DNA of 64,000 nucleotides from IMG/VR virus record IMGVR_UViG_3300042560_001054; one strand, 5' to 3'. Shown piece by piece: positions 4,942 through 59,612 of this stretch. The notes below the pieces were generated by a model. It made no database searches and had not been told where the DNA came from. It worked only from the letters and a program-made list of their open reading frames with translations. The number at the start of each line of letters is the position of its first letter. The stretch's first letter is position 1. The translations under genes and the position numbers were made by a program. This stretch comes from an uncultured virus (IMG/VR IMGVR_UViG_3300042560_001054). Lineage: Duplodnaviria > Heunggongvirae > Uroviricota > Caudoviricetes.

Positions 4942-5205
4942 CTATTTGTCAATTACTGAATTAGCGACTTCATCTCTAATAACTTTAAGCGAAGCAATTT
5001 TGTCAGGTCTAAATCCAGACCAATGTGTGTCTCCGCTTACAACTACTGGGGTGTATGAATACCCAAGAGACTTAACAAGTTTGTAAGCGTCCTCATCAGT
5101 AGTTATGTCCACCTCAGTAAAAGCAACGTTATCACGAGTAAGGTATTTCTTAGTCGCATTACAAGGCGGACAGTCAGGTTTTGTGTAAACAGTTACGTTA
5201 GTCAT
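4942..5205 (-). CDS. nrdH: NrdH-like glutaredoxin
   Basis: VYTKPDCPPC, TPVV, WSGFRPDKI; coupled to the RNR gene. Confidence 0.9.
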   Translation of the reverse strand: MTNVTVYTKPDCPPCNATKKYLTRDNVAFTEVDITTDEDAYKLVKSLGYSYTPVVVSGDTHWSGFRPDKIASLKVIRDEVANSVIDK

Positions 5206-7241
5206 TTGTTCTCCTTCTTGATGAAGCTTATCTCACAGGCGTCTGTAGTGCAATAAGCTTCTCCGATTGCATCGGCGGCCAGGCCAGCGTAGACGCCAGC
5301 AAAATCAATTGGCATTAACTTAAATACATACTCCTCATAATCCTGTTTTGTTATTTGAGTGTAGGGCATTTGTGGGTAAATAGTATTTCCCATAGGAAGG
5401 AAGGAGACTGTCTTCAGCTGACCATCAAACATGTGCAGCACAGTTCCTACATGCTCCCCTTCAGTCTCTTGATTGAACGAAACTGTAACTGAAACTGAGT
5501 TATCACTCCAATGGCGTTGAGCCATAGAAGCCAACGACATCTTCTCAAAGATAGTTACATCTTTTTCAGACCGTTTAGCCATAGACTCAACTGGAAAGAA
5601 CACGACAGAAGTAGTGGTTGGTGATTCACTTGCTGGCTCAACAGTATAGTTAGCCATAGTGAATAGGGGAAGCATAGGGTCTTCGTTACTAAACCTGATT
5701 GCTCTTAAGAAGTATTGACCGCCTGGAGTCCAATGAACCCCTGGAGATTCTCCAGCCAAGATTGACACAGTTCCCGAAGGCTTTACCGTTGTCATCTTAA
5801 TTGATTCACGGATACCAAGCCACTCTGAGTAAAGCTTGTCATACCCTTGAATAACTGAATAGCCTGTGTCCATCCATTCACGAAGAACAGGCACACCTTT
5901 TCTGTCAGCAAAGTTAGCAATACCAGAGATAGAAGTTCCGATACGTCGGTTACGTTGCATGATTGCGTTAGTTTCTTCCCAATGCGTTGGAAGAAGCGTA
6001 ACAGTCTTGGCGTATAGATAAGCAAACTTAAGAGTTCTCTTGAAATCATCAAGACTGTCATGTCTATTCAAATAGGTTTCAACAAGGGTGCAACACTCAA
6101 AAGACTCTAAAGATTGTTCAGCACAAGGATTGTAACCAGCGGCTCGCCAGTCTTTATTGTTAGGCGGGTCAATGAGACGGCCATACTTGCGAGTTACGTC
6201 CATCCAAATAACTCCAGGCTCTCCGTTTAATCTAATACCGTCAACAATTTTAGACAAATCGTCACCAACGCCAACCTCTACAGAGTTGTTAGACATCCAA
6301 GCCCAGCCTGGATTCTTAGGGTCGTATGAGTTACGCTCTGGAAATACCTCAGCGTTCTTAAGATTCAAGAAGTCCTCGTCGTCAACCTTACCAAGCAAGA
6401 GCTCAGCTGAGCGGCGTACGTTGCCTGATACAACGCAAACCCCTATTAAATTTCCTATATCAGCAATATCAATTCGGGTTAAAGTATTTCCTTCCCGATT
6501 ATTAAACAATTTATTGATAGACTCGTGAAGTCTCTTCAGCGGCCCCGGCCCAGCAGCTGTGCCTCCGAATGTTTTAATTGGTTCTCCAGCCAGTCTAATT
6601 TGCGAATAATCGAATTTAGGCATTGGTTGTTCAGGTTTCAAATATGAATTTAGTAATTGGCTTACTGAATCTACCCAACCCTCTCTGGTATCTGCAATCA
6701 CTGTCTCGGCATCTGAGGGTAGTGGCTTGTAAATAGCAAACTCTTTTTCTGCACCTTTGCTATCGAATCCCACTCCAACACCTAGCATGCTGGCTTCCAT
6801 TAAAAATGCAAATGGTTTTGCTGGGTTCAGCTTAGTCATCTCGCTAGTGGATACAAACGCACAGTTCTGCAAAGCTGCGCTGTTCTTTTGTTCGTTAACT
6901 ACTGGTGTGCCCATCATCCACAAACCTCGGCCTGGGGGTGTCCACTTAAAATTAAACAATCGGTCAAAGGCTTCTTTGGCAGAGGCTTGTGCCTTTGAAT
7001 CATTCCAAGGAAGTCGGCTAGACTTACAGTGGTCTTTCTGTAGGGAATACATACCGTTGACTATGCGCTCGCATACATCAACCCAAGTCTCTTTGGTTCC
7101 ATCTTCTTTTAATCTAGAATAAGTTCGAAGGAAAGTTACCTCTCCTACCGAGTTACCTGCCGCATCTTTATAACCCCAAGGTACTGGCTTTGCTCGGTAT
7201 CCGTCTACGAACTCGTTTGCTAGTTTAAAAGAAAGTGCCAT
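5202..7241 (-). CDS. nrdJ: Class II (adenosylcobalamin-dependent) ribonucleotide reductase
   Basis: PPGRGLW, NCAF, GNVRRSAE, NPCAEQ, TTVKPSGT, C-terminal CTTDAC; no beta subunit nearby. Confidence 0.92.
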   Translation of the reverse strand: MALSFKLANEFVDGYRAKPVPWGYKDAAGNSVGEVTFLRTYSRLKEDGTKETWVDVCERIVNGMYSLQKDHCKSSRLPWNDSKAQASAKEAFDRLFNFKWTPPGRGLWMMGTPVVNEQKNSAALQNCAFVSTSEMTKLNPAKPFAFLMEASMLGVGVGFDSKGAEKEFAIYKPLPSDAETVIADTREGWVDSVSQLLNSYLKPEQPMPKFDYSQIRLAGEPIKTFGGTAAGPGPLKRLHESINKLFNNREGNTLTRIDIADIGNLIGVCVVSGNVRRSAELLLGKVDDEDFLNLKNAEVFPERNSYDPKNPGWAWMSNNSVEVGVGDDLSKIVDGIRLNGEPGVIWMDVTRKYGRLIDPPNNKDWRAAGYNPCAEQSLESFECCTLVETYLNRHDSLDDFKRTLKFAYLYAKTVTLLPTHWEETNAIMQRNRRIGTSISGIANFADRKGVPVLREWMDTGYSVIQGYDKLYSEWLGIRESIKMTTVKPSGTVSILAGESPGVHWTPGGQYFLRAIRFSNEDPMLPLFTMANYTVEPASESPTTTSVVFFPVESMAKRSEKDVTIFEKMSLASMAQRHWSDNSVSVTVSFNQETEGEHVGTVLHMFDGQLKTVSFLPMGNTIYPQMPYTQITKQDYEEYVFKLMPIDFAGVYAGLAADAIGEAYCTTDACEISFIKKENK

Positions 7242-16035: not shown

Positions 16036-16317
16036 TTAACTGACTGCATTAATTCTAAAAACGATAGCACTGATAGTGTCACCGTTGCTTTCAACTGAGG
16101 CAAACCCTGGCACACAGGCTAGGTCAATACCTCGGGGAGCGGTGTAGCCTCGAGCAATAGCAATCGCTTTTACAGCTTGATTTACTGCGCCTGCGCCTAC
16201 GGCTCTAATCTTGCAAGTATTGTTTTCGTATACGGCATGTGCAATAGCTGAGGCCACGGATTGTGGGTTACTGCCTGCTCCTACGCGTAATACCTGCTCT
16301 TCTTGTATCTCGGACAT
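16036..16317 (-). CDS. spoVS: SpoVS-family (Alba-like) protein
   Basis: LRV...SNPQSVASAIA, AVGAGAVNQAVKAIAIARGY, PGF: near-canonical SpoVS signature. Confidence 0.88.
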   Translation of the reverse strand: MSEIQEEQVLRVGAGSNPQSVASAIAHAVYENNTCKIRAVGAGAVNQAVKAIAIARGYTAPRGIDLACVPGFASVESNGDTISAIVFRINAVS

Positions 16318-18579: not shown

Positions 18580-18897
18580 CTACTTCTTTGTGCTATCTGC
18601 AATAACCCATTCTTTGAGCGTCATTCCTTTTTTTTCTACTTTTCTTTTTAATGCGTTACGCTCACGATGGCTAAGTCCTCCCCATATACCGTGGGGTTCA
18701 TCAACTCTATCTGCCTCAAGTAAACATTGAATTCGTACTGGGCATGGTGGTCTACCATCTTTGCCAAAACATACTGCTTTTGACTTGTCTGCTATTTCTT
18801 TATATAAATCTTTATCACGAGGGGGATACCAAAGCTCGGTATCCATACCACGGCACTTGGCGCTATGACGCCAATCGTCTTGGGGTTCTGCAGGCAA
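18580..18897 (-). CDS. whiB: WhiB-family Fe-S transcription factor
   Basis: W...AKC, C, CPVRIQC, GIWGGLS.RER. Confidence 0.9.
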   Translation of the reverse strand: MPAEPQDDWRHSAKCRGMDTELWYPPRDKDLYKEIADKSKAVCFGKDGRPPCPVRIQCLLEADRVDEPHGIWGGLSHRERNALKRKVEKKGMTLKEWVIADSTKK

Positions 18898-18919: not shown

Positions 18920-19270
18920 CTACTCCTCTTCCGTGTGTTCTCGCTCCAAGTCTATCATGTTTAGCAGAGTATCTCGAATCTGCAGAAAGTCGTCCTCCAA
19001 TAGAACCACGTAGTTCTCTTTGTTTAAACTGAAACCTAATACAGGCGTTCTGCTATCTAATATGGCCTCGGTAACAATTTTTTCAAGAACGTCGGCTTTC
19101 ATTGTAAAAGACTGTTTACCAGTCCACTTATGCTCTATTAAAAGGTCCTTAGACCTGACGTCCCCTTTACGTTGCCAAAAAGCTCCAGAACCAGCGTTTC
19201 TGCCACCCCCAACTTTTTTAGCTAATCTCTTTTCATGCTTTAGAGACTGTTTTTGACCCTCACTCTTCAT
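18920..19270 (-). CDS. Hjc-like PD-(D/E)xK resolvase/endonuclease
   Basis: HEKRLAK, GSGA, KGDV, IEHK. Confidence 0.72.
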   Translation of the reverse strand: MKSEGQKQSLKHEKRLAKKVGGGRNAGSGAFWQRKGDVRSKDLLIEHKWTGKQSFTMKADVLEKIVTEAILDSRTPVLGFSLNKENYVVLLEDDFLQIRDTLLNMIDLEREHTEEE

Positions 19271-20315
19271 CAGGTTCAACAGTCGGGTCAGAACCTAAAG
19301 TGCCTTTGTTTTTAACGATGTCCAAAACTTCTCTTTCTAACTCTTCTTTTAAATCTATCTCTTCTCTTAAAGAGGATAGCAAAGCGTCTGCACCCTGCCA
19401 TTGACGACCAGCGTATCTGTAGTACGCCCCAGCTCTTTTAATGATTTTGTATAAATAACCAATAGCCACAATTTCTTTAGCAAAATCGTAATTACCTTTA
19501 GGAACTGCGCCACCATCAGCAAAGTAGAAATCTACAAAAGCTGATTGAGATGGTGGGGCAGACTTGTTCTTTTTTGTTTGAAACTTAATAGTTTGGCCAA
19601 TACGACGTTTTTCTTGACCGGTTCCCACTTCAACCCAGTCATCTCGTTTAACCTCTACACGTGTAAAGAAAAAGTAGTTCTTAGCCTCTCCTCCAGGAGT
19701 GGTGCGAGGGTCTCCGTAAGTAACACCTATCTTCATACGGTATTGATTAATAATTAACCCAACAAAGGGGCGCTCTTCGTTAATAAGACTACGACTACCA
19801 GCTTTTTCCATTTTTCTAAAAAACTTAGCCATTAACGACGCAGCACGGCCAACAGTAAACTCTTCAAGTTCTTTTTCGTCCTCAGCAGCAGGAACCAAAG
19901 CTGCCAACGAATCAATGACCACACAATCTATCTCCTTTGTCTCTACTAAATCTAAGACAGCAGTTAAAGCAACTTCCATTACGTTAGTTGTTAAAACGTG
20001 AACTCTAGACAAGTCTACTCCGCACATTTCTGCATATTCGGGAACCCACTGCTCTGCTGCTACCCACACAGCAGTAAAACTAGGGTCTTTCTTTTGATTA
20101 GCAGCAATAGTTTTAAGAGCTAATGCTGTTTTTCCATTACTGGCTTCACCAACAATTTCATGCCATTGATTTGTAGGCCACCCGCCACCTAAAATTACAT
20201 CTAAAGCAAGTGAACCTGAAGTAACTCGTGTACTAGGAATTACATCGGACGCAACTACAATTGTTCCGTCACCGTATTTTTTATTAATTAACGCTAATAC
20301 TTTATTAAAACTCAT
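19260..20315 (-). CDS. recA: RecA-family recombinase
   Basis: SGSLALD, GEASNGKT, VIDSLAAL, INQYR.KIG, TTPGG, KNK.APP. Confidence 0.92.
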   Translation of the reverse strand: MSFNKVLALINKKYGDGTIVVASDVIPSTRVTSGSLALDVILGGGWPTNQWHEIVGEASNGKTALALKTIAANQKKDPSFTAVWVAAEQWVPEYAEMCGVDLSRVHVLTTNVMEVALTAVLDLVETKEIDCVVIDSLAALVPAAEDEKELEEFTVGRAASLMAKFFRKMEKAGSRSLINEERPFVGLIINQYRMKIGVTYGDPRTTPGGEAKNYFFFTRVEVKRDDWVEVGTGQEKRRIGQTIKFQTKKNKSAPPSQSAFVDFYFADGGAVPKGNYDFAKEIVAIGYLYKIIKRAGAYYRYAGRQWQGADALLSSLREEIDLKEELEREVLDIVKNKGTLGSDPTVEPDEE

Positions 20316-38809: not shown

Positions 38810-40153
38810 TTATACCTTCCTGCTTGTAAGCCCTGCAGTTGCAAGGACGTTTAATGATATTGATACATTTGTAGAAATAGGAATCATGTCAGGGGTAAAC
38901 CTCATGTGTTGAACTCCTAGGCTGGTGACGTACCCCTTGTAAGCAAGAGGTCCAATATCAATATTTAACAGTGTAGGCATTAAAAAGCCAATATCAGCTG
39001 TTTGTATTCCTCGTCGGTTAGTCCACACGGTATCACCTGTTCCAGGACCATTAATAGCTCTGTACAAGTACTCAACATCTGAGATAGTGCCTCTTTCAAA
39101 CAGGTCAATTAACTTGTCTTCTAATTCTTCAGCACTAGTTTGAAACGAAGTATTACCACTGTAGTATTCAGAGAACTCTCTTACTGAGTTTCTTAATAGC
39201 CCTCTCTCTGTAACTTTATTGTCGTAAGACTGGTCAGGTCTATATTGAGATACTTGAGCAGCAGGCACCCCATAAATGTTTGAAGTGTTTAATCCTGGTC
39301 GTTCAAATTTAGCGTTTGCACAAGCAAAGTCGTTAGTTCTATCTAAGACAATGTTAAATGTAATTGTTTCAGTAGCTGGGAAAGCGGCTACTAAAGATAA
39401 GAACATATCTTTTACATCTGGAGTTGTTTCCATTTGTACTTGAACAGCTGTTGAAAATGACTCTGGATTCCATAGGAATTGGAAACCATACTTTCTTTCA
39501 TTATCAGAAGCTTGTTTTGCTATTTTTTGTGCGTCGCTACTTGAATCTGAAGAGCCAACTGTAATATCTAAGTTTGCGCTTGAGTTCCACCATAGGCGCC
39601 CACGACGATAAGCTTCGCTAGAGCGATTTGGTTTTCCAAAGTCGTTATACCCGCCACCAACATTATTAACAAGAGTAGGGGTTAAAGGCATACTCCATTT
39701 GTGAGGAGGCAAGTTCCATTTGTATTCACTTGGGTCAGCTTCTGGCTGAGGAGACGGAGTAGTGTCACCATCAGTAGCGACTTCCGCTTTAGTTTTATCT
39801 TTTGTAGTAGTTTTAGTTTTATCTTTACCGTCATTTGAGGTTGACTTAGTATCCTTTTTAGAAATTTTATCAACTAGCGGTGGAATAACAATAGTACCTA
39901 CGGTAGCTACTGTAGCTGCTCTTCCAAGTGCTTTTTTAGTAAGTACTTTTGAAGCAGCGCTACCAACAGCGTACCCGCTTGCAGTCTTTGAAAGTTTACT
40001 TGTTCCAGGTTTTGCTGCTTTAGCTGATTTAGCAGCACCTTTAGCAGTTACTGCTGCAGCTCTTTTTACTTGATTTTTTGCAATTTGTTTAGCGGCTACT
40101 CCAACTCCTATTCGAACGGCCCCTACTACAACAGGTATCAAAGGAAACGGCAT
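38810..40153 (-). CDS. Tail tube initiator-like protein with long basic N-terminal extension
   Basis: FQFLWNPES, F.IVLDRT, GYVTSL.V....F..DMIP; position after tape measure. Confidence 0.6.
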   Translation of the reverse strand: MPFPLIPVVVGAVRIGVGVAAKQIAKNQVKRAAAVTAKGAAKSAKAAKPGTSKLSKTASGYAVGSAASKVLTKKALGRAATVATVGTIVIPPLVDKISKKDTKSTSNDGKDKTKTTTKDKTKAEVATDGDTTPSPQPEADPSEYKWNLPPHKWSMPLTPTLVNNVGGGYNDFGKPNRSSEAYRRGRLWWNSSANLDITVGSSDSSSDAQKIAKQASDNERKYGFQFLWNPESFSTAVQVQMETTPDVKDMFLSLVAAFPATETITFNIVLDRTNDFACANAKFERPGLNTSNIYGVPAAQVSQYRPDQSYDNKVTERGLLRNSVREFSEYYSGNTSFQTSAEELEDKLIDLFERGTISDVEYLYRAINGPGTGDTVWTNRRGIQTADIGFLMPTLLNIDIGPLAYKGYVTSLGVQHMRFTPDMIPISTNVSISLNVLATAGLTSRKV

Positions 40154-42240
40154 TATCTACTCACCGCCATTCTAATAGAGTCTTCGTTAATGAGTATGTT
40201 CTTAACTTCTCTTGCAAGTTTCTTTTCATCAATTGCAGTTCCTTTAGGCACGTTAATGTTTACAACTACTCCACCATAGTTAGTGTGGGTGCTGCCCCCA
40301 CCAGTGTCTCCTCCACCTTGTGGTTTTGCAAACAACGGAGTTCCTGATTTCATGTCAAATAGCGATGTTCCTGATACTCCAACGTCTGCTATAGCATTTG
40401 CTGCGTAAACACTTGAAGCAGAACTAGAGTCTAAAGAAGCTGCTCCACTTAAATATCCAATTGGGTCTACTTTAGCTTCGCCTCGTCGCACTTCAAAATG
40501 TAGGTGAGGACCAGTACTGTTACCTGAATTTCCACTTAACCCAACAACTTGTCCAGCTTTTATAGAAGAACCTTCAGGTACGTTTTTACTAGATAAATGA
40601 CCGTAGTAACTTGTATACCCATCGTCGTGTAGAACTTTTACATAGTTACCAAATCCGTCAGAATCATAACCAGTAGGTTGAACTATTCCATCTTTAACAG
40701 CCATTACTGGAGTTCCTGTAGCAACTCCGTAATCTACGCCTCCATGAGGTCTTCCATAAGATGGGCTCTTTTTTCCATTAAATACTAAGTGTCTTACTTC
40801 ACCATAAGGACTAGTTACTCTAGGACTTCCGCTCAAAGGTTTAACTGCTGTATACATGGCTTCGTTGCCGTCGCCACCACCAGTTCCACCATCAGGCTCT
40901 TCGTCGGTCATGTCTGTATTAAATAGTTTGTTTGCTCCGTAAGTTACACCTGCTGAAATTAGAGCTGCCAACCCAAACTTTTTAAACGCTCCACCTTTTC
41001 CTCCGCCGCCTCCAAGTAAGGCACCTAGGAAAGAGGTTATTCCGCTAAGAACTAAACCTCCTATACCACCCATTAAGCCGCCAAGTCCGTTATTGCCACC
41101 ACCAGCTAAAGTCTCTATTTTAGAGAACTGTTTGATAATTCCACCAAAAGTATCTACGTGAGCGTTAAAGTTTTTAGCAGCAGTTGTAAGAAGCGTATTA
41201 GCTTCCATAATTCCTTGAATTTGATAATCAGATGTAGAAGCAATAACGTCAGAAGCTGCTGCATTTCTTTTTGCTTCGCTCTGAGCTATATCTGGAATTA
41301 ATCCGCTTTCTCTTAATGATTGCAAATCTAGTTCTGCACCAGATGCTTTTTGCATAATTGCATTAATAATGCCCATTCGTAGTTCTGGTGATTCACCAAA
41401 GTACTGATTTAAATAAGAATAAAGAGCATTACCTGGTTGCAAAGATAGAGCAATAGCGTCTTTTGTTATCTTCTTTCCGCCAGCTGCATTAGTTAATTGC
41501 TTCCATACGTCATTAGCAATATCTTCAGGCTTTCTCATAAAGCCATCAGCACCTCGTACATTTATACCAATCATACGAAGTTTGTTTACGCTAGATGCTT
41601 GGTTTAAAGCAATAGCAGCTGACATACCACCTTGAATACCTACGCCAGGCGCAAGATTTGAAAATGTAGCCGCTGCAGACATGGAGTCATTTCTTCCAAA
41701 TCCTGGAAGCATTCCAGCGCTTAAGCCCATCATTGCTGCACGTGCTGCGTCTTCTGGTTCAATTCCTGTTCCAGTTTGCATTGTTCCGCTAATCATGCGG
41801 CGAGCCCCACCGTTAGTCATGAAGTTTAAGCGGGCTTCAGTAAAGTTACGTTCAATTGCTTGTTGATTTGTAGGCAACATTGTTGCAGCAAGGCCAATAC
41901 CCGCTACAGCGTATGGAAGAGCTCTAGCTACTGCTCCACCAAAACTCATACCACTAGATGATTCATTAGCTGCTTGTTGGTTTCTATTAGGAGGTTGTAC
42001 AAACCCTCCTAAAGAACCAGCGCCAGGCATTTGAGGAACTCCAGGTCCACCTCCGCCTGCTACGGCAAAAGCTCCAGCTCCTTTTCCTGCCTTTAAATTA
42101 GCTGCAATGTCAGCAGATAGTTCTTTTGTTTTTTGAAGAACTTGATTTAATTTATTGTATTCTTCACGTAGGTCGGTAACTAACTGAATTTTTTTAGCTT
42201 GGCCGCTACCGCCAAGGTTCATTCCACCAAGAACGCTCAT
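40153..42240 (-). CDS. Tape measure protein with C-terminal M23 peptidase
   Basis: Ala/Gly-rich helical body; HGGVD, YGHL, GPHLHFE (M23 zinc ligands); follows the chaperone. Confidence 0.85.
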   Translation of the reverse strand: MSVLGGMNLGGSGQAKKIQLVTDLREEYNKLNQVLQKTKELSADIAANLKAGKGAGAFAVAGGGGPGVPQMPGAGSLGGFVQPPNRNQQAANESSSGMSFGGAVARALPYAVAGIGLAATMLPTNQQAIERNFTEARLNFMTNGGARRMISGTMQTGTGIEPEDAARAAMMGLSAGMLPGFGRNDSMSAAATFSNLAPGVGIQGGMSAAIALNQASSVNKLRMIGINVRGADGFMRKPEDIANDVWKQLTNAAGGKKITKDAIALSLQPGNALYSYLNQYFGESPELRMGIINAIMQKASGAELDLQSLRESGLIPDIAQSEAKRNAAASDVIASTSDYQIQGIMEANTLLTTAAKNFNAHVDTFGGIIKQFSKIETLAGGGNNGLGGLMGGIGGLVLSGITSFLGALLGGGGGKGGAFKKFGLAALISAGVTYGANKLFNTDMTDEEPDGGTGGGDGNEAMYTAVKPLSGSPRVTSPYGEVRHLVFNGKKSPSYGRPHGGVDYGVATGTPVMAVKDGIVQPTGYDSDGFGNYVKVLHDDGYTSYYGHLSSKNVPEGSSIKAGQVVGLSGNSGNSTGPHLHFEVRRGEAKVDPIGYLSGAASLDSSSASSVYAANAIADVGVSGTSLFDMKSGTPLFAKPQGGGDTGGGSTHTNYGGVVVNINVPKGTAIDEKKLAREVKNILINEDSIRMAVSR

Positions 42241-42254
42241 CTGCTAATCACCTC

Positions 42255-42401
42255 CTACTTACGTTTAGCTCTTGAAATCCAATTAAATCGTTCTCTAACT
42301 GATAAAGAACGAATATCTTCTAGCGTCCATCCTGGGAACGAACGTGTCAAAAATTCGTACTGGTCTAACAGGTTCTCGTAGTCCTCGTCTTTATAGACGA
42401 A
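42255..42401 (-). CDS. Second tail-assembly-chaperone ORF with no ATG/GTG start, probably reached by +1 frameshift
   Basis: Hand translation in the +1 frame: FVYKDEDYENLLDQYEFLTRSFPGWTLEDIRSLSVRERFNWISRAKRK; fills the gap before the tape measure SD. Confidence 0.65.
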   Translation of the reverse strand, partial: FVYKDEDYENLLDQYEFLTRSFPGWTLEDIRSLSVRERFNWISRAKRK

Positions 42402-43185
42402 ACAAGTCGGCCAGGCTCAGTGGCATAGCTATTTCTTCACCACATGCCTCACAGGCCGTACTCACCTCCCCGAGGCGGGGTCCTGGATTACGAGTTAAAA
42501 TTTCTTCAATGATTTTACTTCTGTCAGACATTCCTAGTTTTAATACAGAAACCGCTCCTAAAGAGGGTGCTCCGTTAATAGTAGAAATGCATCCAGCAAG
42601 AAGCATTGTGTTTAACTCTGCCACGGTTTTATCCGTGTTTTCCATGAGTTTTCTTTGAACTGACCCGTTAGGTAAGTTAACAACAACTTCTCCTAATTTT
42701 GATTGATAGACAAATGTTCTATCTTCAATAGGGTCTTTAAGTTCACGCACTGGTATGCCATCTTTTACATCCACTGTTACGTCTAGAGCTGTCTTACAAA
42801 ATGGGCAAGTGATATTAAAATCAACTTTAGACCCAAAGGTAACGCATCGAATTCCAACAAGGATTGCGTCTCGGTCACCTGATAGTAGGCTGTCCAAGTC
42901 TTCTTTGTTGGCCTTCTCCATACCTAAGCTAACAAGTCCTCGTTGTAGCATTACGTTTAATGCTCTTCCAATAGACCCTGCTTTAGATATAGCTTCTTCA
43001 TCGACACCAGTCAATTCACGCACTTCTGCGTATTTGACTAGGGACCCTTCCCGGTTGATATATCCTCCGGGAAGAGTCACCTCTGAATTTGAAGGCGGTA
43101 CAGTTTTTACTTCAACTGCAGGCTCTTCAATACTCTTGGTCAATTTGTCGAGTAGTGACTGGTCTGTAACTAGTTGTTCTGCCAC
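42391..43185 (-). CDS. Tail assembly chaperone / T4 gp26-like hub assembly protein
   Basis: VRELTGVDEE, GDRD.IL..IR..TFG, CPFC, CEAC; between tube and tape measure. Confidence 0.75.
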   Translation of the reverse strand: MAEQLVTDQSLLDKLTKSIEEPAVEVKTVPPSNSEVTLPGGYINREGSLVKYAEVRELTGVDEEAISKAGSIGRALNVMLQRGLVSLGMEKANKEDLDSLLSGDRDAILVGIRCVTFGSKVDFNITCPFCKTALDVTVDVKDGIPVRELKDPIEDRTFVYQSKLGEVVVNLPNGSVQRKLMENTDKTVAELNTMLLAGCISTINGAPSLGAVSVLKLGMSDRSKIIEEILTRNPGPRLGEVSTACEACGEEIAMPLSLADLFRL

Positions 43186-43210: not shown

Positions 43211-43804
43211 TTAACCTTTTGCATCTCCAGCACGAGGGTCTCCAGTTGCTCCTGTAAAGGATACAGAAAGACCTTCGTGCACTAGCTGCATTGTTTCAAA
43301 TAGAATTTGGTTATCTGTTGCGTTTAGGTCTGAGTAGCTTAGGCTTGAAATCCAAGCGTTGTGAATCTTGAAGCGCATCTTAAATGCGTTTTCTCCACTA
43401 TCCGCAACAGGATGGTCCATTACCCAGATGTTAACGTCACAACGGAATGAACTTGTGTTTGCTCCTACAGCGATACCGTCTCCAGAAGCTGCAGCGAACA
43501 ATCCACGCATCCAGTTGATTGCTTGGTCATTTCCAAATAGTGTTCCTCTTTGGAAGGTCACTGGTGAAAATGTTGTCATACCTGGAACTTGGTGCAACGT
43601 AGTGTTGTATCCACCTTCACGGTATCCAATGCTCTGTGTATTAATAGATAACCCAGAGATATTTGTAAATCCTCCACTAAAAGTAGTGAAGTCTTTTGTT
43701 GCATACGCCTTAGTTTCTGCTGGCGTAAATTGCGCATAGAATCTAAAACTGCGAAGTGGGTCTGTCGCAAGTTTAGAAAAGCGCGAGATATTACTGGTGG
43801 CCAT
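43211..43804 (-). CDS. Tail tube protein (T4 gp19-like)
   Basis: DPLRSFRF, GF..ISGL, YREGG, PG...F.PVT..RG, NAW, E...LVHEG. Confidence 0.92.
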   Translation of the reverse strand: MATSNISRFSKLATDPLRSFRFYAQFTPAETKAYATKDFTTFSGGFTNISGLSINTQSIGYREGGYNTTLHQVPGMTTFSPVTFQRGTLFGNDQAINWMRGLFAAASGDGIAVGANTSSFRCDVNIWVMDHPVADSGENAFKMRFKIHNAWISSLSYSDLNATDNQILFETMQLVHEGLSVSFTGATGDPRAGDAKG

Positions 43805-43816
43805 GTTTTATTCTCC

Positions 43817-45304
43817 TTACGCCACAGTGACGGTGCTGCCACCATCATACTGACCGATTTTGATAACAACGAATTCAGCTGGTCGTTGGAGGGCCACTCC
43901 AATTTCCATATTAACTTCTCCATTGTCTACCTTGATAAGTGGGTTCGTTGAAGCGTCGCACTTAACAAAGAATGCATCTGCTGGGGTTGCTCCACGTAGA
44001 CCACCTTGTGACCAGTAGTCAGTTAGGAAGCCTTCCAGAGAAGCTGTGATACGACGCCATAATACTGCATCGTTAGGTTCAAATACTGCAAAGGTTGTTA
44101 AATCAGTTAGCGCTTTGCGTAGATAAATTAGGGAACGACGAACTGGTACATAACGGTCTGCGTATCCTGCTTTAAGAGTACGAGAACCCATTACTACAAT
44201 TCCTGAACCTGGGATAAAACGAATAGCGTTTACAGGTGCAGCGGCACTGTTCATTGTGTCTAAGTTAGCGTTAGTCAACTTAGTAACAGCAACTGCTCCA
44301 GCAATTCTATTGTTTACACCAGCTGGTGCCTTGAATACTCCACGAGATACATCTGTTGAGATGTACTGTCCGACAACTGCTCCACCGCAGAATGCTGTTT
44401 CTGTAGCTCCTGGGCTTGAAGATGTTGGGCTTGGAATAGTTAGATTAGGGTAATACACAGCTCCAAGAGAAGAGCTTGTATAAGCAGCTGCACGTGTCAT
44501 TTGATTTGCTACTGTATCGTTCATAGCATCAATAACTACAAACACATCGTCGCGTCCTTCAGCATAAGAAAGGATGCTGTTAATAGCAGCTGAAGATGTA
44601 ACTCCAGGTGCGTTAAGAACTAGTGCGTTAGTTACTGTGTCAAAAGCAGGCATTGCGTTTGCAACATCTGATTCTGTTACAGATGAACCGTTGCTTCCTG
44701 ATGCAAGTGGTTCTAGTGATACCACTCCTGGGTTTCTTGTTCCACCAGTTGCTGCAGAGTTTGCATCTACAGCTGTAATGATAGTTGAGGTGTTGTTAAT
44801 AGCAGTAGGAGCATAACGAGCATCTCCAACTGTCATATTCAAATCAGTAAAACGTTCAGCAAGGAAAGCTGAAGTTGTTCCACCGTTATAAACTGCTATA
44901 TCAAAGTGGTTAGCTAGTGAAGAGTTAGTGATTGTGATGTAAACACTATTTCCCCAAGTACCAGCGTTTTTAGCAAAAATGGTTAGTGTTGGGTCTGTTG
45001 TTGCAGAACGGTCATCAAATGAACGTGTTGCAGGAGCAGCAGCACCAGCAGTTACTCTCTTAATCCAAGCTTGGTTTCCACCATTTGCAAAGAATAAGTA
45101 AACAGCAGTTGTTAAAGTATTTAAAGTACCCCATGAACCGTACAGGCTAGTGTACTGAGTCCACGAAGTAACCAATGTTGGGTCTGTAGGACCCCTGTCT
45201 GCAGCGCCAATAAATGCAGCAACCGAAGTTGATGCTGGCCCTGCTAATGGTGGGATTGGATTGAGGGTTTCCTCAACATACACACCAGGGCGTAGATAAG
45301 ACAT
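43817..45304 (-). CDS. Contractile tail sheath protein
   Basis: RPGVYVEE, FFANGG, RGVFKAPAG, RYVPVRR, FEPND, PAEFVVI. Confidence 0.95.
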   Translation of the reverse strand: MSYLRPGVYVEETLNPIPPLAGPASTSVAAFIGAADRGPTDPTLVTSWTQYTSLYGSWGTLNTLTTAVYLFFANGGNQAWIKRVTAGAAAPATRSFDDRSATTDPTLTIFAKNAGTWGNSVYITITNSSLANHFDIAVYNGGTTSAFLAERFTDLNMTVGDARYAPTAINNTSTIITAVDANSAATGGTRNPGVVSLEPLASGSNGSSVTESDVANAMPAFDTVTNALVLNAPGVTSSAAINSILSYAEGRDDVFVVIDAMNDTVANQMTRAAAYTSSSLGAVYYPNLTIPSPTSSSPGATETAFCGGAVVGQYISTDVSRGVFKAPAGVNNRIAGAVAVTKLTNANLDTMNSAAAPVNAIRFIPGSGIVVMGSRTLKAGYADRYVPVRRSLIYLRKALTDLTTFAVFEPNDAVLWRRITASLEGFLTDYWSQGGLRGATPADAFFVKCDASTNPLIKVDNGEVNMEIGVALQRPAEFVVIKIGQYDGGSTVTVA

Positions 45305-46553: not shown

Positions 46554-46784
46554 CTACTTCTTTTTGTCGTCCTTATCGGACTTCTTTACTTTTTTAATAA
46601 TTTTGGCGTCAATTTTCTTATCTTCAGCCATAGACTTTGGTTTCTTCTTCTTGCCGTGAGCCTTATCAGCCTTCTCAAACTTAGCCTTTTCGTCTTTGTC
46701 GAAACCAGCCTTCTTGAGCATTTTGGCGTCTTTCTTTTCATCTTTGGCTTTTGTGTACTTGCCCTTTTCAAATGGTTTAGCCAT
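46554..46784 (-). CDS. Small Lys/Asp-rich protein
   Basis: ORF track; very high Lys content. Confidence 0.65.
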   Translation of the reverse strand: MAKPFEKGKYTKAKDEKKDAKMLKKAGFDKDEKAKFEKADKAHGKKKKPKSMAEDKKIDAKIIKKVKKSDKDDKKK

Positions 46785-46833
46785 TAGGGTCCTTCTTTCC
46801 GCAACCGCAGTTGCCGCATTTGCACTCTGGCAT
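46777..46833 (-). CDS. Putative 18-aa Cys-rich peptide
   Basis: TAATG coupling; MPECKCGNCGCGKKDPNG. Confidence 0.4.
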   Translation of the reverse strand: MPECKCGNCGCGKKDPNG

Positions 46834-46973
46834 TACATGCCTTTCTTTTTTACCATAGAAGACTTCTTGCCCTTTGCGGGAGCTGCCTTCTTAGCAAACT
46901 TTTTATTTGCTGCCTTTACAGTTTTCATGCCGTGCTTGTCTTTAGGTTTACCGCAACCACAGGTAGCGCACAT
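46833..46973 (-). CDS. Small Lys-rich protein with CxxCGC N terminus (46 aa)
   Basis: MCATCGCGKPKDKHGMK...; TAATG coupling. Confidence 0.6.
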   Translation of the reverse strand: MCATCGCGKPKDKHGMKTVKAANKKFAKKAAPAKGKKSSMVKKKGM

Positions 46974-47113
46974 TATTTTTTACCTTTCTTAGGTTTAGCG
47001 ACTTTGTTTTTTCCTTTACCTTCAGGAACACAGTTTGGAACTTTCTTTCCATTCTTGTTCTTGAATCCTACTTGGACGTATCCGTCCCAACATGGGTTAG
47101 AGCCGCTTGCCAT
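46973..47113 (-). CDS. Small Lys-rich protein with CWxGY...VPNCV motif (46 aa)
   Basis: MASGSNPCWDGYVQVGFKNKNGKKVPNCVPEGK...; TAATG coupling. Confidence 0.65.
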   Translation of the reverse strand: MASGSNPCWDGYVQVGFKNKNGKKVPNCVPEGKGKNKVAKPKKGKK

Positions 47114-47337
47114 TACTTACCCTTCTTGTGGGAGTTGCTTGGCTTACTGTGCCAATCTTTAACTGCCTTAACACCTTGCTTAACAGTCTTTGCTCCACCA
47201 ACCTTAGTTAGATTAATCTTATCGTACTTGCCTGTTTTTTGACCTAAGTGGTCAACAATAACTTTGTCTTTTTTCTTGTAGACAACATGACCGGTACCTC
47301 CAGCTTTAAGGGTGGCAGGCTTTTCTTTCTTTTTCAT
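47113..47337 (-). CDS. Small Lys-rich protein
   Basis: ORF track; ATGA coupling. Confidence 0.65.
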   Translation of the reverse strand: MKKKEKPATLKAGGTGHVVYKKKDKVIVDHLGQKTGKYDKINLTKVGGAKTVKQGVKAVKDWHSKPSNSHKKGK

Positions 47338-47501
47338 TTTGCGCCTCGTTTGTATCTGATAGTAGCTTTTGGTTTACGAACAATTCCGCCCTTTTTCTTT
47401 CGAGCCATGGCTCCACCTGACTTGTACTTGCTACCAGTCAAAGCGATGCTCACTGACTTTTCAGGGTTCTTACCTGCTGATTGTCCAATACGTTTTGCCA
47501 T
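47334..47501 (-). CDS. Small Lys/Arg-rich protein (55 aa)
   Basis: AAGGAGG SD; MAKRIGQSAGKNPEK... Confidence 0.65.
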   Translation of the reverse strand: MAKRIGQSAGKNPEKSVSIALTGSKYKSGGAMARKKKGGIVRKPKATIRYKRGAK

Positions 47502-49104: not shown

Positions 49105-49227
49105 CTACTCGGCGTCAAGGGCTACATAATCGTAGCCGATAACCTCCCCAGTTGCCGCATCCGTGACTCTAAAAGTACGGATATTTGTTAGAGGGTCTAC
49201 GCCTAAATCTTCTTTATTTACTGTCAT
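49105..49227 (-). CDS. Small hypothetical protein (40 aa)
   Basis: ATGA overlap with the fibre stop; [19 protein letters not shown]... Confidence 0.5.
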
Positions 49228-50966
49228 GATAATCTACCCCACAGACCGGTGTTGTAAGTTGTAACTGGTGTAGCCGTTGTTGGCAAATCTGTTTGTGAAG
49301 TAACAGCACCATTTAGTTTTGGACTCAAGCTTGCTACAGAGCCTGGAGCAAATCCGTATGCTACATAAGCATTTCCTGGAGTGCTTCCTACCCATAGAAC
49401 TGCAAGGCCGTATCTAACCCCTGCTTGAAGAGTGTATGTGGCAGGTAGTGAACCACCTGTTGAAAATGCTCTTGTGTACAAAGTGTTTCTAGTGCCAAAT
49501 ATTGTTGTGTCGTTTGCTGTGGCAGCTACTAAAGTTGCTGTGGTTTCATCATATGTGTATAAACCAAATCTAGCAAGAGTTGTACCGCTAGAGGCTGTAC
49601 CTGCAGAAGATACTGAAATCTCGTCTAGAGTCAGAGTCTTGAGAGGTGTAAAGAACGTAAAGTAAGTAGTTCCGCTGACTAGGAACGCGGTCTGGTTATC
49701 CCAACGTGGTGCAACATCTATAGCTGCGGTTGGCATACCTAGAGCACCAAGAGCATGTTCTACCAATGCCACAGTTCCAGTAGCATCTTGAATAGTTACT
49801 GTTCTATCAGCTGTTGGGTCTGTAAAGCTCAGTGTTGTTTCATTAGCATCTGCAGTAGAACCTTCTACAACAATGTTTCCATCATTAAGAGTTAAACCAG
49901 TAAGAACAGGGCTGCTTAGTGTTAAGCCTGAAACAGAGGTTGTTGTTCCACCCAAAGTCAATGTACTTGAACCAAGGGTAATCGTAGAGTTAGCTAACTT
50001 AACGTTTGTTACGTTTGCGTCTACAATTTTTGCAGTTGTTACTGTTCCATCTGTAGGTGTACGAGTATCGGTAAACCTAGCATCTGTGTCAATTGCTAGT
50101 TTTACCCAGTTACCTGCGTGTGCATAATAAGCACTTCCAGTAGCATGAACATGAGCAAACATTCCGTGGTTAGTAGCTGCGTTAGGTAGGTCTACTAACG
50201 CGTCAAACACAACCCAAGTAATGTCGTCTGAAGTAATTGCTGACTTATCTAAACCAAGAACTGCCGCTGTTGATGTTCCTGTATTTGTTACAGGTCCTGT
50301 TACAGAGATAACTCCTGATGGGCCTGTTGGACCAGTAACTGTGCTTGCAGCACCTGTTGGACCAGTTGGTCCTACGGGTCCTTGAGGACCTACAATCTGT
50401 CCTGCGCTATACCAAGCAGTGCCGTTCCATACATATAAGTCGCCATCTTCATCAACAATGTACGCGTCGTTTACTGCATTTCCTGTTGATGGTAGGTTTG
50501 CAATTAATGCAACGCTTCCAATTAAATCAACTGCAACACCTTGTGCACCTGTTGGTCCTGTTACGCCCTGAGCACCAGTAGGGCCAGTTATGCCCTGTGC
50601 GCCTGTAGGACCAGTTGGTCCCGTTACTCCCTGTGCGCCAGTAGGGCCAGTTATGCCCTGTGCGCCTGTTGGTCCAGTAGGACCTATCGGTAGAATTAAA
50701 TTAAGTGTTTGGTTTGGAGCAGTACCAGTTATAGACGCTCCAGCACTAGTGCTAGATGATATTGAACCAATTGTTAAAGTATTAGCAGCACCAGTTGGAC
50801 CAGTAACACCAGATGAATAAGCTAGAGAGTTCCAACCTTGAATACCATTGCCCACTTTAAATCTACCTGTGTCATACTCATACCCAACTTCTCCTTGAGC
50901 TAGAATTGGGTTGGTAGTAGACCATGCTGTTGCAGTATCACGTCTAAACTGAACACGAACGGCCAT
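49224..50966 (-). CDS. Collagen-like tail fibre with Mtd-N-like N terminus
   Basis: QFRRDTA..W...[27 protein letters not shown] repeats. Confidence 0.8.
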
Positions 50967-50975
50967 TAAATCTCC

Positions 50976-51338
50976 TTAGCTTGCAGCATTTCCACAATCA
51001 ATAATTGAGGAACCACCATATATTGTATTCGCTGCGCCACCATCAATATTTGTAAACACTGGACCAGTTGGTCCTGTCTCACCTATTGGTCCTGTTGGGC
51101 CTGTTGGACCAGTTACACCTTGTGAACCAGTCGGTCCTGTTGGACCAGTTGGGCCTGTTACACCTTGAATACCTTGTGAGCCAGTTGGACCAGTTACTGA
51201 TGGACCAGTTGGACCTGTAGGACCCACAGGTCCTTGAGCAACGCTGATTCTCCATACTGAGCCATCCCAGTACCAAAGCTGGTCGCCAGCAGAAAATAGG
51301 TCATTTACCGCAGGGGAGTTGGGAAAGTCGATTGGCAT
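50976..51338 (-). CDS. Short collagen-like protein
   Basis: IDFPNSP N terminus; Gly-X-Thr triplets; IDGG tail. Confidence 0.75.
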
Positions 51339-59144: not shown

Positions 59145-59612
59145 TTATACTCCTAACCACCAAGATGTTCCGATGCTTCCTGCACTAGATGAGCCTGCAG
59201 GTCCTGTAGCACCTGTTGCTCCAACAGCTCCTGTCGGTCCAGTTACACCTTGTGGACCAGTTGGTCCAATTGGTGCCGCACCAGTCTCAACCCAGTATCC
59301 ATCATAAAAGATAAATATTCCGCCTGTATTAGGGTCAAACCAAGCGTCACCTGCTGATGCACCTACTGGTGGAAGTGCACTTGAGTAAGTCCACGCTCCT
59401 GTAGGTCCTGTACTACCAGTTGGTCCTAATAAACCTTGCGTACCAGTTGGGCCAGTTGGACCTGTTGGTCCTGTGGCACCTTGCGGTCCAGTTGGTCCGA
59501 CTACTGGTGTGCGGATTACATCCCAAGTAGTTCCATTCCACTCCCAAGTAGTATTACCAGAAGTAAACTGTTGATTGAGTGTAGGTGAATTAGGAAAATC
59601 AATTGCTGTCAT
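59145..59612 (-). CDS. Short collagen-like protein
   Basis: IDFPNSP start; GPT repeats flanking a GDAWF...YDGYWV domain. Confidence 0.75.
   Translation of the reverse strand: MTAIDFPNSPTLNQQFTSGNTTWEWNGTTWDVIRTPVVGPTGPQGATGPTGPTGPTGTQGLLGPTGSTGPTGAWTYSSALPPVGASAGDAWFDPNTGGIFIFYDGYWVETGAAPIGPTGPQGVTGPTGAVGATGATGPAGSSSAGSIGTSWWLGV

Follow-up and report, generated by a model that had tools for sequence, protein, structure and literature searches.

A conserved UUU_C junction suggests +1 ribosomal frameshifting in a T4_baseplate-family tail assembly chaperone of an uncultured Caudoviricetes virus

A frameshift in the tail assembly chaperone gene is conserved among long-tailed phages, with lambda gpG/gpGT as the reference case (Xu, Hendrix and Duda 2004, as cited in PMC5009743), and a G:GT ratio of 30:1 is given for lambda in a passage of the latter source (PMC5009743). 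The cited passages also describe phage tail-gene shifts other than -1, namely Mu gpGT (-2), the tsh gene of Listeria phages PSA, A118 and A500 (+1 at CCC_UGA) and the HSTV-2 chaperone, probably +1 (PMC5009743, PMC3498833). A +1 frameshift on UUU is described for influenza A PA-X at UCC_UUU_CGU (PMC3498833) and for plant amalgaviruses at UUU_CGN (PMC5052127), and UUU_Ynn sites are listed as prone to +1 shifts in bacteria, including a site proposed for YopN-TyeA (PMC5009743). According to one of these sources, a single tRNA-Phe binds UUC better than UUU (PMC3498833). Here we analyse the tail assembly chaperone locus of an uncultured virus (Caudoviricetes; IMG/VR record IMGVR_UViG_3300042560_001054), of which we used a stretch of 64,000 nucleotides, hereafter the window. 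We propose that this locus encodes a G/GT-type chaperone pair through a programmed +1 ribosomal frameshift in which tRNA-Phe moves from UUU to UUC, a reading that the comparative evidence leads us to put at roughly 85%.

The elements on which this proposal rests all lie at the 3' end of a 264-residue gene on the minus strand:

42391..43185, minus strand: chaperone gene in frame 0, 264 amino acids plus TAA, encoding the short product; T4 gp26/gp51 family
42417..42419, minus strand: +1-frame stop TGA, five codons 5' of TTC, the 5' limit of the stretch holding the shift
42399..42402, minus strand: proposed shift site UUU_C, with UUU at 42402-42400 and UUC at 42401-42399
42397..42399, minus strand: frame-0 A-site codon CGT (Arg)
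42391..42393, minus strand: frame-0 stop TAA, two codons past the shift codon
42258..42401, minus strand: +1-frame extension, 48 sense codons including the re-paired TTC, forming the C-terminal domain of the 309-residue long product
42255..42257, minus strand: extension stop TAG, overlapping the GGAGG Shine-Dalgarno (SD) sequence of the tape measure gene

A preliminary description of the locus, made from the sequence alone, had read the gene end as GAC TTG TTT CGT CTA TAA, followed by a +1 frame open for 48 codons that stops just before the tape measure SD sequence, has a TGA a few codons upstream and contains neither ATG nor GTG. Each of these elements was recovered at the positions given above, and the only common start codon within the +1 open reading frame (ORF) is a TTG at 42350. 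The description had also reported no X_XXY_YYZ heptamer of the kind that promotes -1 shifts, and we likewise found none between the +1-frame TGA and the frame-0 TAA; the -1 frame is closed 26 nucleotides past the frame-0 stop. TTTC occurs in frame nowhere in the chaperone gene of the window except at the proposed site. The gene also has the position typical of a G/GT-type chaperone, between the tube and tape measure genes, with all three on the minus strand.

Under the proposed mechanism, most ribosomes would read frame 0 to TAA and release the 264-residue protein, while a minority, holding peptidyl-tRNA-Phe (anticodon GAA) on UUU in the P site, would slip one base forward. The tRNA would re-pair with the overlapping and better-bound UUC, and reading in the +1 frame would resume at GUC. 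The slip would add a conserved 47-residue three-helix domain, giving a 309-residue protein (45 residues longer than the short product) that ends just before the tape measure start. We infer that the shift is ribosomal, that it is inefficient and that it would need no strong stimulator; a low shift rate would suit a G/GT-type pair. By this account the two proteins would work like lambda gpG/gpGT, the part common to both acting on the tape measure and the extension bringing in a further tail component.

The +1 arrangement recurs in every relative that shows both the gene end and the extension. Scanning IMG/VR with the 264-residue protein gave 58 loci, of which 6 run off their contig and 52 have a visible gene end. 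A further 21 loci came from bacterial genomes, scanned at one genome per prokaryotic species, and most of these are in Streptomyces, Kitasatospora, Saccharothrix and Terracoccus prophages. The window, the 52 IMG/VR loci, four cultured Streptomyces phages and 20 of the bacterial-genome loci make up a set of 77 loci showing both gene end and extension. The extension lies in the +1 frame in all 77, and the frame offset never varies within this clade, at chaperone identities to the window of 29 to 100%. In all 52 IMG/VR relatives the +1 frame is open for 133-148 nucleotides beyond the frame-0 stop and encodes the same peptide; the -1 frame extends no further than 95 nucleotides and is not conserved. 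The +1 arrangement is likewise present in all four cultured Streptomyces phages (LuckySocke, BRock, pSt2308 and GiJojo, at 38-40% identity), and the +1 extension in 20 of the 21 bacterial-genome loci.

These counts bear on the possibility that no long product is made and that the +1 ORF stands open by chance, is a decayed remnant or stems from an assembly error. A frame open for 53 codons is not rare in AT-rich DNA and could arise by chance; the arrangement exceeds chance because it is conserved across relatives, in many independent assemblies and in cultured phages. The peptide itself is conserved, at 22 to 98% identity to that of the window over an alignment of 42 sequences, in which W25 and R38 are invariant, L18, L33, R36, E37 and W41 are nearly so, and an RER..W motif is near-invariant. 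A profile built from these 42 peptides matched 252 clusters when searched against 1.84 billion representatives, and the extension alone was modelled by AlphaFold2 as three helices with a confident fold (predicted local distance difference test score, pLDDT, 91.0). Alignment and model together indicate that the extension is a real conserved domain, and on this comparison a chance, remnant or assembly-error origin is already refuted by conservation; we regard it as next to impossible.

Other searches with the extension returned little. Pfam and PHROGs searches with the extension alone found no family, and a word-index homolog search found one protein (P0368, 68 residues, without a Pfam domain) and no link to PF28602 of the gp51 homologs. 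The extension model had no match at E<=0.001 in BFVD. Among the high-probability BFVD rows, which we treat as leads only, were a 74-residue ORF of Myoviridae sp. ctgXL3 and a 107-residue "baseplate protein" of Klebsiella phage KPV15; a baseplate protein of Myoviridae sp. ctgXL3 also ranked fourth in BFVD for the chaperone model.

The junction sequence points to UUU as the shift codon. Among the 77 loci, TTT is followed by C in 72 and by a TGA stop in four (L047-L050), and one locus differs (L083). The preliminary description had proposed testing whether TTT CGN is conserved with the downstream ORF always at +1. The offset (77/77) and TTT (76/77) hold, with no synonymous TTC in any homolog except L083, where the site is different, and CGN does not: the codon after TTT in the 76 loci is CGN in 63 (CGT 27, CGC 24, CGA 10, CGG 2), and otherwise CTC (5), CTG (1), CAG (2), CCG (1) or TGA (4). 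Since CGN is found in just 63 of 76 loci, the conserved signal is UUU_Y (UUU_C or UUU_U) rather than UUU_CGN. The PA-X-like shift that had been suggested is thus supported as regards a UUU_C slip at a G/GT-like pair; a fixed CGN codon does not hold, and nothing here favours stimulation by a rare CGU. Codons before TTT vary widely (TTG, TTA, CTA, CTC, CTG, ATG, ATC, ACC, GTG, ACG, GCG and CTT, for Leu, Met, Ile, Thr, Val and Ala). A frame-0 stop lies 0-3 codons past TTT in every relative, and a +1-frame stop lies just three codons upstream in many loci. In L047-L050 the frame-0 stop directly follows TTT and the +1 stop is three codons upstream, so the shift must fall within four codons, of which TTT alone is common to the family.

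Ribosomes might instead slip by -2, or by +1 on a codon next to UUU, and both alternatives have to be set against these junctions. Shifts of +1 and -2 lead into the same frame and sequence alone cannot distinguish them, and a -2 shift is known for the phage Mu chaperone (PMC3498833). For a -2 slip at this site, re-pairing of tRNA-Phe or tRNA-Arg finds no matching codon; because the bases before TTT vary, no -2 re-pairing is conserved, and only UUU-to-UUC or UUU-to-UUU re-pairing is. A slip on a neighbouring codon is in turn constrained by L047-L050, where the shift is confined to four codons. We consider such alternatives to tRNA-Phe slipping forward on UUU quite unlikely.

Codon usage within the coding regions of the window is also informative. 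In-frame TTT followed by C is depleted (50/592, 8.4%, vs 948/6542, 14.5%, for other NNT codons; Fisher p 2.4e-5), and TTC followed by C is enriched (26%). The depletion fits selection against accidental UUU_C shifts. Upstream of the site, its four bases (TTTT in L047) have no second in-frame copy in 27 of 32 related chaperone genes, and together the depletion and this in-frame uniqueness fit a self-shifting site of low rate.

The small ORF could instead be a separate gene, with translation beginning at a non-canonical codon or reinitiating once ribosomes have terminated at the chaperone stop. It is annotated as such in LuckySocke (gene 91), BRock (gp135) and GiJojo (gene 83), the frame-0 stop is just 0-3 codons from the start of the conserved peptide, and among the 150 extension-bearing representatives listed, 148 are orphan ORFs of 31-90 residues. 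Several features speak against independent initiation. Forty of 56 distinct loci, including the window, have no ATG, GTG or TTG between the upstream +1 stop and extension codon 10, and conservation of the peptide starts right at the junction. The candidate start noted earlier in the window, a CTG after GAGGA, is not conserved, with an SD-like core after TTT in just 5 of 28 diverse loci. Nor would a separate gene explain why the offset is strictly +1 or why TTT_Y stands at the junction. We therefore judge independent translation very unlikely. In-frame fusions of chaperone and extension were absent among 120 listed homologs (of 187 with E<=0.001), all of which are at most 268 residues long, none reaching the extension. 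The remaining two of the 150 listed representatives, P0343 (344 residues) and P0323 (288 residues), had looked like natural fusions and proved to be frame-chimeric high-GC (guanine plus cytosine) ORFs in which the +1 frame is entered far upstream; they are not true fusions because the conserved chaperone C-terminus is lost. The lack of fused forms is an indirect hint that both products, which in a G/GT-type pair are made in a set ratio and both required for tail assembly, may be needed here too.

Alternatively, RNA polymerase slippage or an indel variant at the DNA level could bring the extension into frame in some transcripts or genomes, and there are genes of phages and bacteria that do rely on transcriptional slippage (PMC5009743). 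The run at the junction is only three T (four in L047-L050), far below known slippage runs. The site is bridged gap-free by two RNA-library contigs from two studies and by one DNA contig, with the reservation that contigs drop rare variants, and the same frame arrangement recurs in more than 50 independent assemblies. We rate slippage or an indel as highly improbable, even below the odds of a separate gene, and retain a programmed +1 shift on UUU as the reading that accounts for the locus.

Several points weigh against this reading. Its support is comparative throughout. TTT is the usual Phe codon in low-GC members (79% of Phe codons in the window and 34-89% in related AT-rich loci), so its conservation there is of little weight. 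The weight falls on the high-GC loci (GC 0.60-0.69; actinobacterial prophages), where TTT is kept at the junction in 18 of 19 and makes up 0-20% of Phe codons, shares that were computed from stop-to-stop ORFs of at least 150 residues, some perhaps spurious. The codon in the A site varies across the family, and CGT is not a rare codon of the phage, accounting in the window for 27% of Arg codons and 11.6 per 1000 codons by phage usage, from which the host tRNA pool may differ. No conserved downstream RNA structure appeared in an RNAalifold consensus of 28 loci, and no SD-like sequence is visible upstream of the shift site in the window. Nor does the family show a prfB-type arrangement, in which a stop codon fills the A site and an SD-like sequence sits 3 nucleotides upstream of the shift codon, as a stop directly follows TTT in only 4 of 77 loci (L047-L050). 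The shift efficiency could be very low. Among individual loci, L081, from a bacterial genome, has no detectable extension, and L083 keeps the +1 extension without TTT, its junction reading CTT CTA TTC GGT TGA. In the distant Bacillus phage BCD7 (26% identity, PF12322) the +1 frame is closed. A 167-nucleotide ORF in the -1 frame of BCD7 looked similar by eye and was considered as an equivalent domain reached by a -1 shift; the hidden Markov model of the extension did not detect it, and the idea was dropped.

The only helix in the RNAalifold consensus lies upstream of the site:

42420..42443, minus strand: possible 5-bp stem with a 14-nucleotide loop, in which 42443-42439 pairs with 42424-42420; its 3' end is 17 nucleotides upstream of UUU

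In the 28 loci, 88.6% of cells in this stem are paired, vs 81.3 +/- 1.7% in shuffles (0 of 500 shuffles as high), and one pair alternates between C-G (16 loci) and U-A (8 loci). The stem may act weakly as a 5' element or may simply result from codon choice. Visual inspection also picked out hairpins in the codons for Pro-Leu-x-Leu-Ala immediately before TTT; these were discarded, their register being clade-dependent and largely following from the codons. No tRNA genes were found in the window.

The genes around the chaperone locus are all on the minus strand, in the order sheath, tube, 264-residue gene, tape measure, a 447-residue protein, a LysM/tail-X protein and a gpD-like hub protein. The immediate neighbours are as follows:

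45304..43817, minus strand: tail sheath gene
43211..43804, minus strand: tail tube gene, 197 amino acids, directly 5' of the chaperone gene (Pfam Phage_T4_gp19, E 2.4e-24; phrog_4542, tail tube)
40153..42240, minus strand: tape measure gene, 695 amino acids, ATG at 42240, with a Peptidase_M23 domain (Pfam PF01551, E 4.4e-31) and matches to several tape measure PHROGs

The Peptidase_M23 domain occupies residues 498-593 of the tape measure protein. The 447-residue protein that follows (38810-40153, minus strand) matched a CIS tube family at 23.9 bits, below the cut-off of 27, and by this resemblance may be a tube initiator.

The chaperone belongs to the family of T4 gp26 and gp51. The short form matches PF12322 (T4_baseplate) at 43.8 bits and the long form at 50.0 bits, vs a gathering cut-off of 24.5; the match covers residues 95-203 and only profile positions 60-150 of 219. 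The short form also matches phrog_150. T4 gp26 and gp51 match PF12322 over the full length of the profile. An AlphaFold model of the chaperone built from 30 sequences (pLDDT 86.4, predicted template modelling score 0.80) is, among 48,161 solved chains, most like the HK97 and YqbN tail assembly chaperones in its predicted fold. In BFVD it had 60 matches at E<=0.001 (rank 1 E 4.9e-21, template modelling score 0.75), led by T4-like baseplate hub assembly proteins and BCD7, with those named being hub assembly proteins, chaperones and subunits of T4-like phages. A sequence search of the PDB with the long-form profile gave no match at E<=1.

T4 gp26 (208 residues) and gp51 (249 residues) are listed as hub assembly chaperones in a table of Leiman et al. 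2010 (PMC3004832). Spacing between the second Cys pair and a downstream Phe is identical in the two forms proposed here and in the two T4 proteins:

Window short form: C248 to F262, 13 residues between; 2 residues after Phe
Window long form: C248 to F262, 13 residues between; 47 residues after Phe
T4 gp26: C189 to F203, 13 residues between; 5 residues after Phe
T4 gp51: C186 to F200, 13 residues between; 49 residues after Phe

The profile of the long form aligned with that of 22 gp51 homologs colinearly across the junction (E 8.8e-4, probability 23%). With the single T4 gp26 sequence, its alignment was limited to 51 columns surrounding the Cys motif (E 6.4e-4, probability 28%), and with T4 gp51 to 23 columns (E 0.025). 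The extension found its best local alignment in the gp51 C-terminal tail, at values that are not significant (E 0.081 and 0.16). It is plausible that gp26 and gp51 correspond to the short and long forms here. In T4 they differ in being two separate genes without a frameshift, in the hub gene cluster and not between the tube and tape measure genes. The T4 record (L062 2803-3429, gene 26) also carries an internal product, 26', of 95 residues with the same C-terminus, so T4 already makes nested products of the gp26/gp51 family. To our knowledge, T4 has long been quoted as an exception to the conserved G-T frameshift.

These comparisons leave room for a wider scheme that we hold only tentatively, at somewhat short of an even bet. 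PF12322 proteins would be the G/GT-type chaperones of a very large group of contractile-tailed phages, making the pair by a bare UUU_C +1 shift without a stimulator; T4 would have hard-wired the pair as the paralogous genes 26 and 51; and the four-base signal of PA-X and the amalgaviruses would also be fixed and programmed on bacterial ribosomes.

The sequencing runs holding the window are freshwater metagenomes. A WhiB-like regulator (18580-18897, minus strand), together with the Streptomyces-phage relatives, indicates an actinobacterial host, and the source is probably a freshwater actinobacterial myovirus. On the same strand the window encodes a SpoVS-like protein (16036-16317), RecA (19260-20315) and a B12-dependent class II ribonucleotide reductase (5202-7241), and it also encodes DNA polymerase A, DnaB and a primase. 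GATC is absent from the 64 kb, vs about 236 occurrences expected from base composition, and CCGG (23 vs 123), TCGA (66 vs 236) and CGCG (38 vs 123) are depleted relative to expectation; this looks like restriction-site avoidance. Upstream of the sheath-side genes, 46554-47501 (minus strand) holds five head-to-tail ORFs of 46-76 residues that are very rich in Lys and Arg. Several genes at 49224-50966, 50976-51338 and 59145-59612 (minus strand) have collagen-like repeats, one with an Mtd_N (major tropism determinant N-terminal) domain and two with glycine-rich domains, and probably encode fibres.

In GenBank, the spans corresponding to the extension are separate hypothetical proteins in LuckySocke (L059 4866-5021), BRock (L060 4779-4961) and GiJojo (L085 1512-1709), and are unannotated in pSt2308 (L084 1481-1739). 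The chaperone of these Streptomyces phages is named as a hypothetical or baseplate protein, and the BRock tape measure as an endolysin. If the proposed shift is real, annotation would be corrected for BRock, LuckySocke, GiJojo and pSt2308 and for hundreds of metagenomic phages. It would provide a large, strictly conserved bacterial-virus case of +1 frameshifting on UUU_C, and would mean that selection can fix a signal of four bases with no help from a rare codon, stop codon or RNA structure. For the T4 gp26/gp51 family it would supply a definite function, that of chaperones for the tape measure, and the old view that T4 has no G-T device would become open to direct test.

Frameshifting in tail chaperones is already known, as are +1 shifts in tail genes of phages and the proneness of UUU_Y to shifting. 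What is new is their combination in a fixed UUU_C +1 site of the PF12322 chaperone family, present in hundreds of clusters and unannotated even in cultured phages; full-text literature searches, with subscription journals largely outside their range, found no published description of a UUU_C +1 shift in PF12322 chaperones. The locus resembles lambda G/GT in the position of the gene, flanked by the major tail (tube) and tape measure genes, in a shift site close to the 3' end of the gene, in a second ORF that lacks its own start, in two products that would have a common N-terminal part, and in an arrangement kept despite sequence divergence. It differs in that the shift would be +1 rather than -1, without an X_XXY_YYZ heptamer, and in that the protein, a PF12322 member with Cys pairs, has roughly double the length. 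Mu gpGT, Listeria tsh and HSTV-2 are comparable in that the tail-gene frameshift is of a kind other than -1, and in HSTV-2 a myovirus would have a +1 shift in its chaperone; the shift codons of Mu gpGT and Listeria tsh differ, being a GGG-type run or CCC_stop. The PA-X and amalgavirus sites also carry UUU_C, and for them too the proposal is that tRNA-Phe slips in the P site from UUU to UUC; the window even shares the CGU A-site codon with PA-X. Here, in contrast, the ribosome is the bacterial 70S, CGN follows UUU in only 63 of 76 loci, the phage has CGT as no rare codon, and the codon before UUU is variable instead of UCC. The bacterial UUU_Ynn sites offer the same minimal signal in bacterial translation and work without a 3' stop codon. 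Those are error-prone sites or a single bacterial fusion, whereas the site described here is fixed across a large phage family, in a structural-assembly gene.

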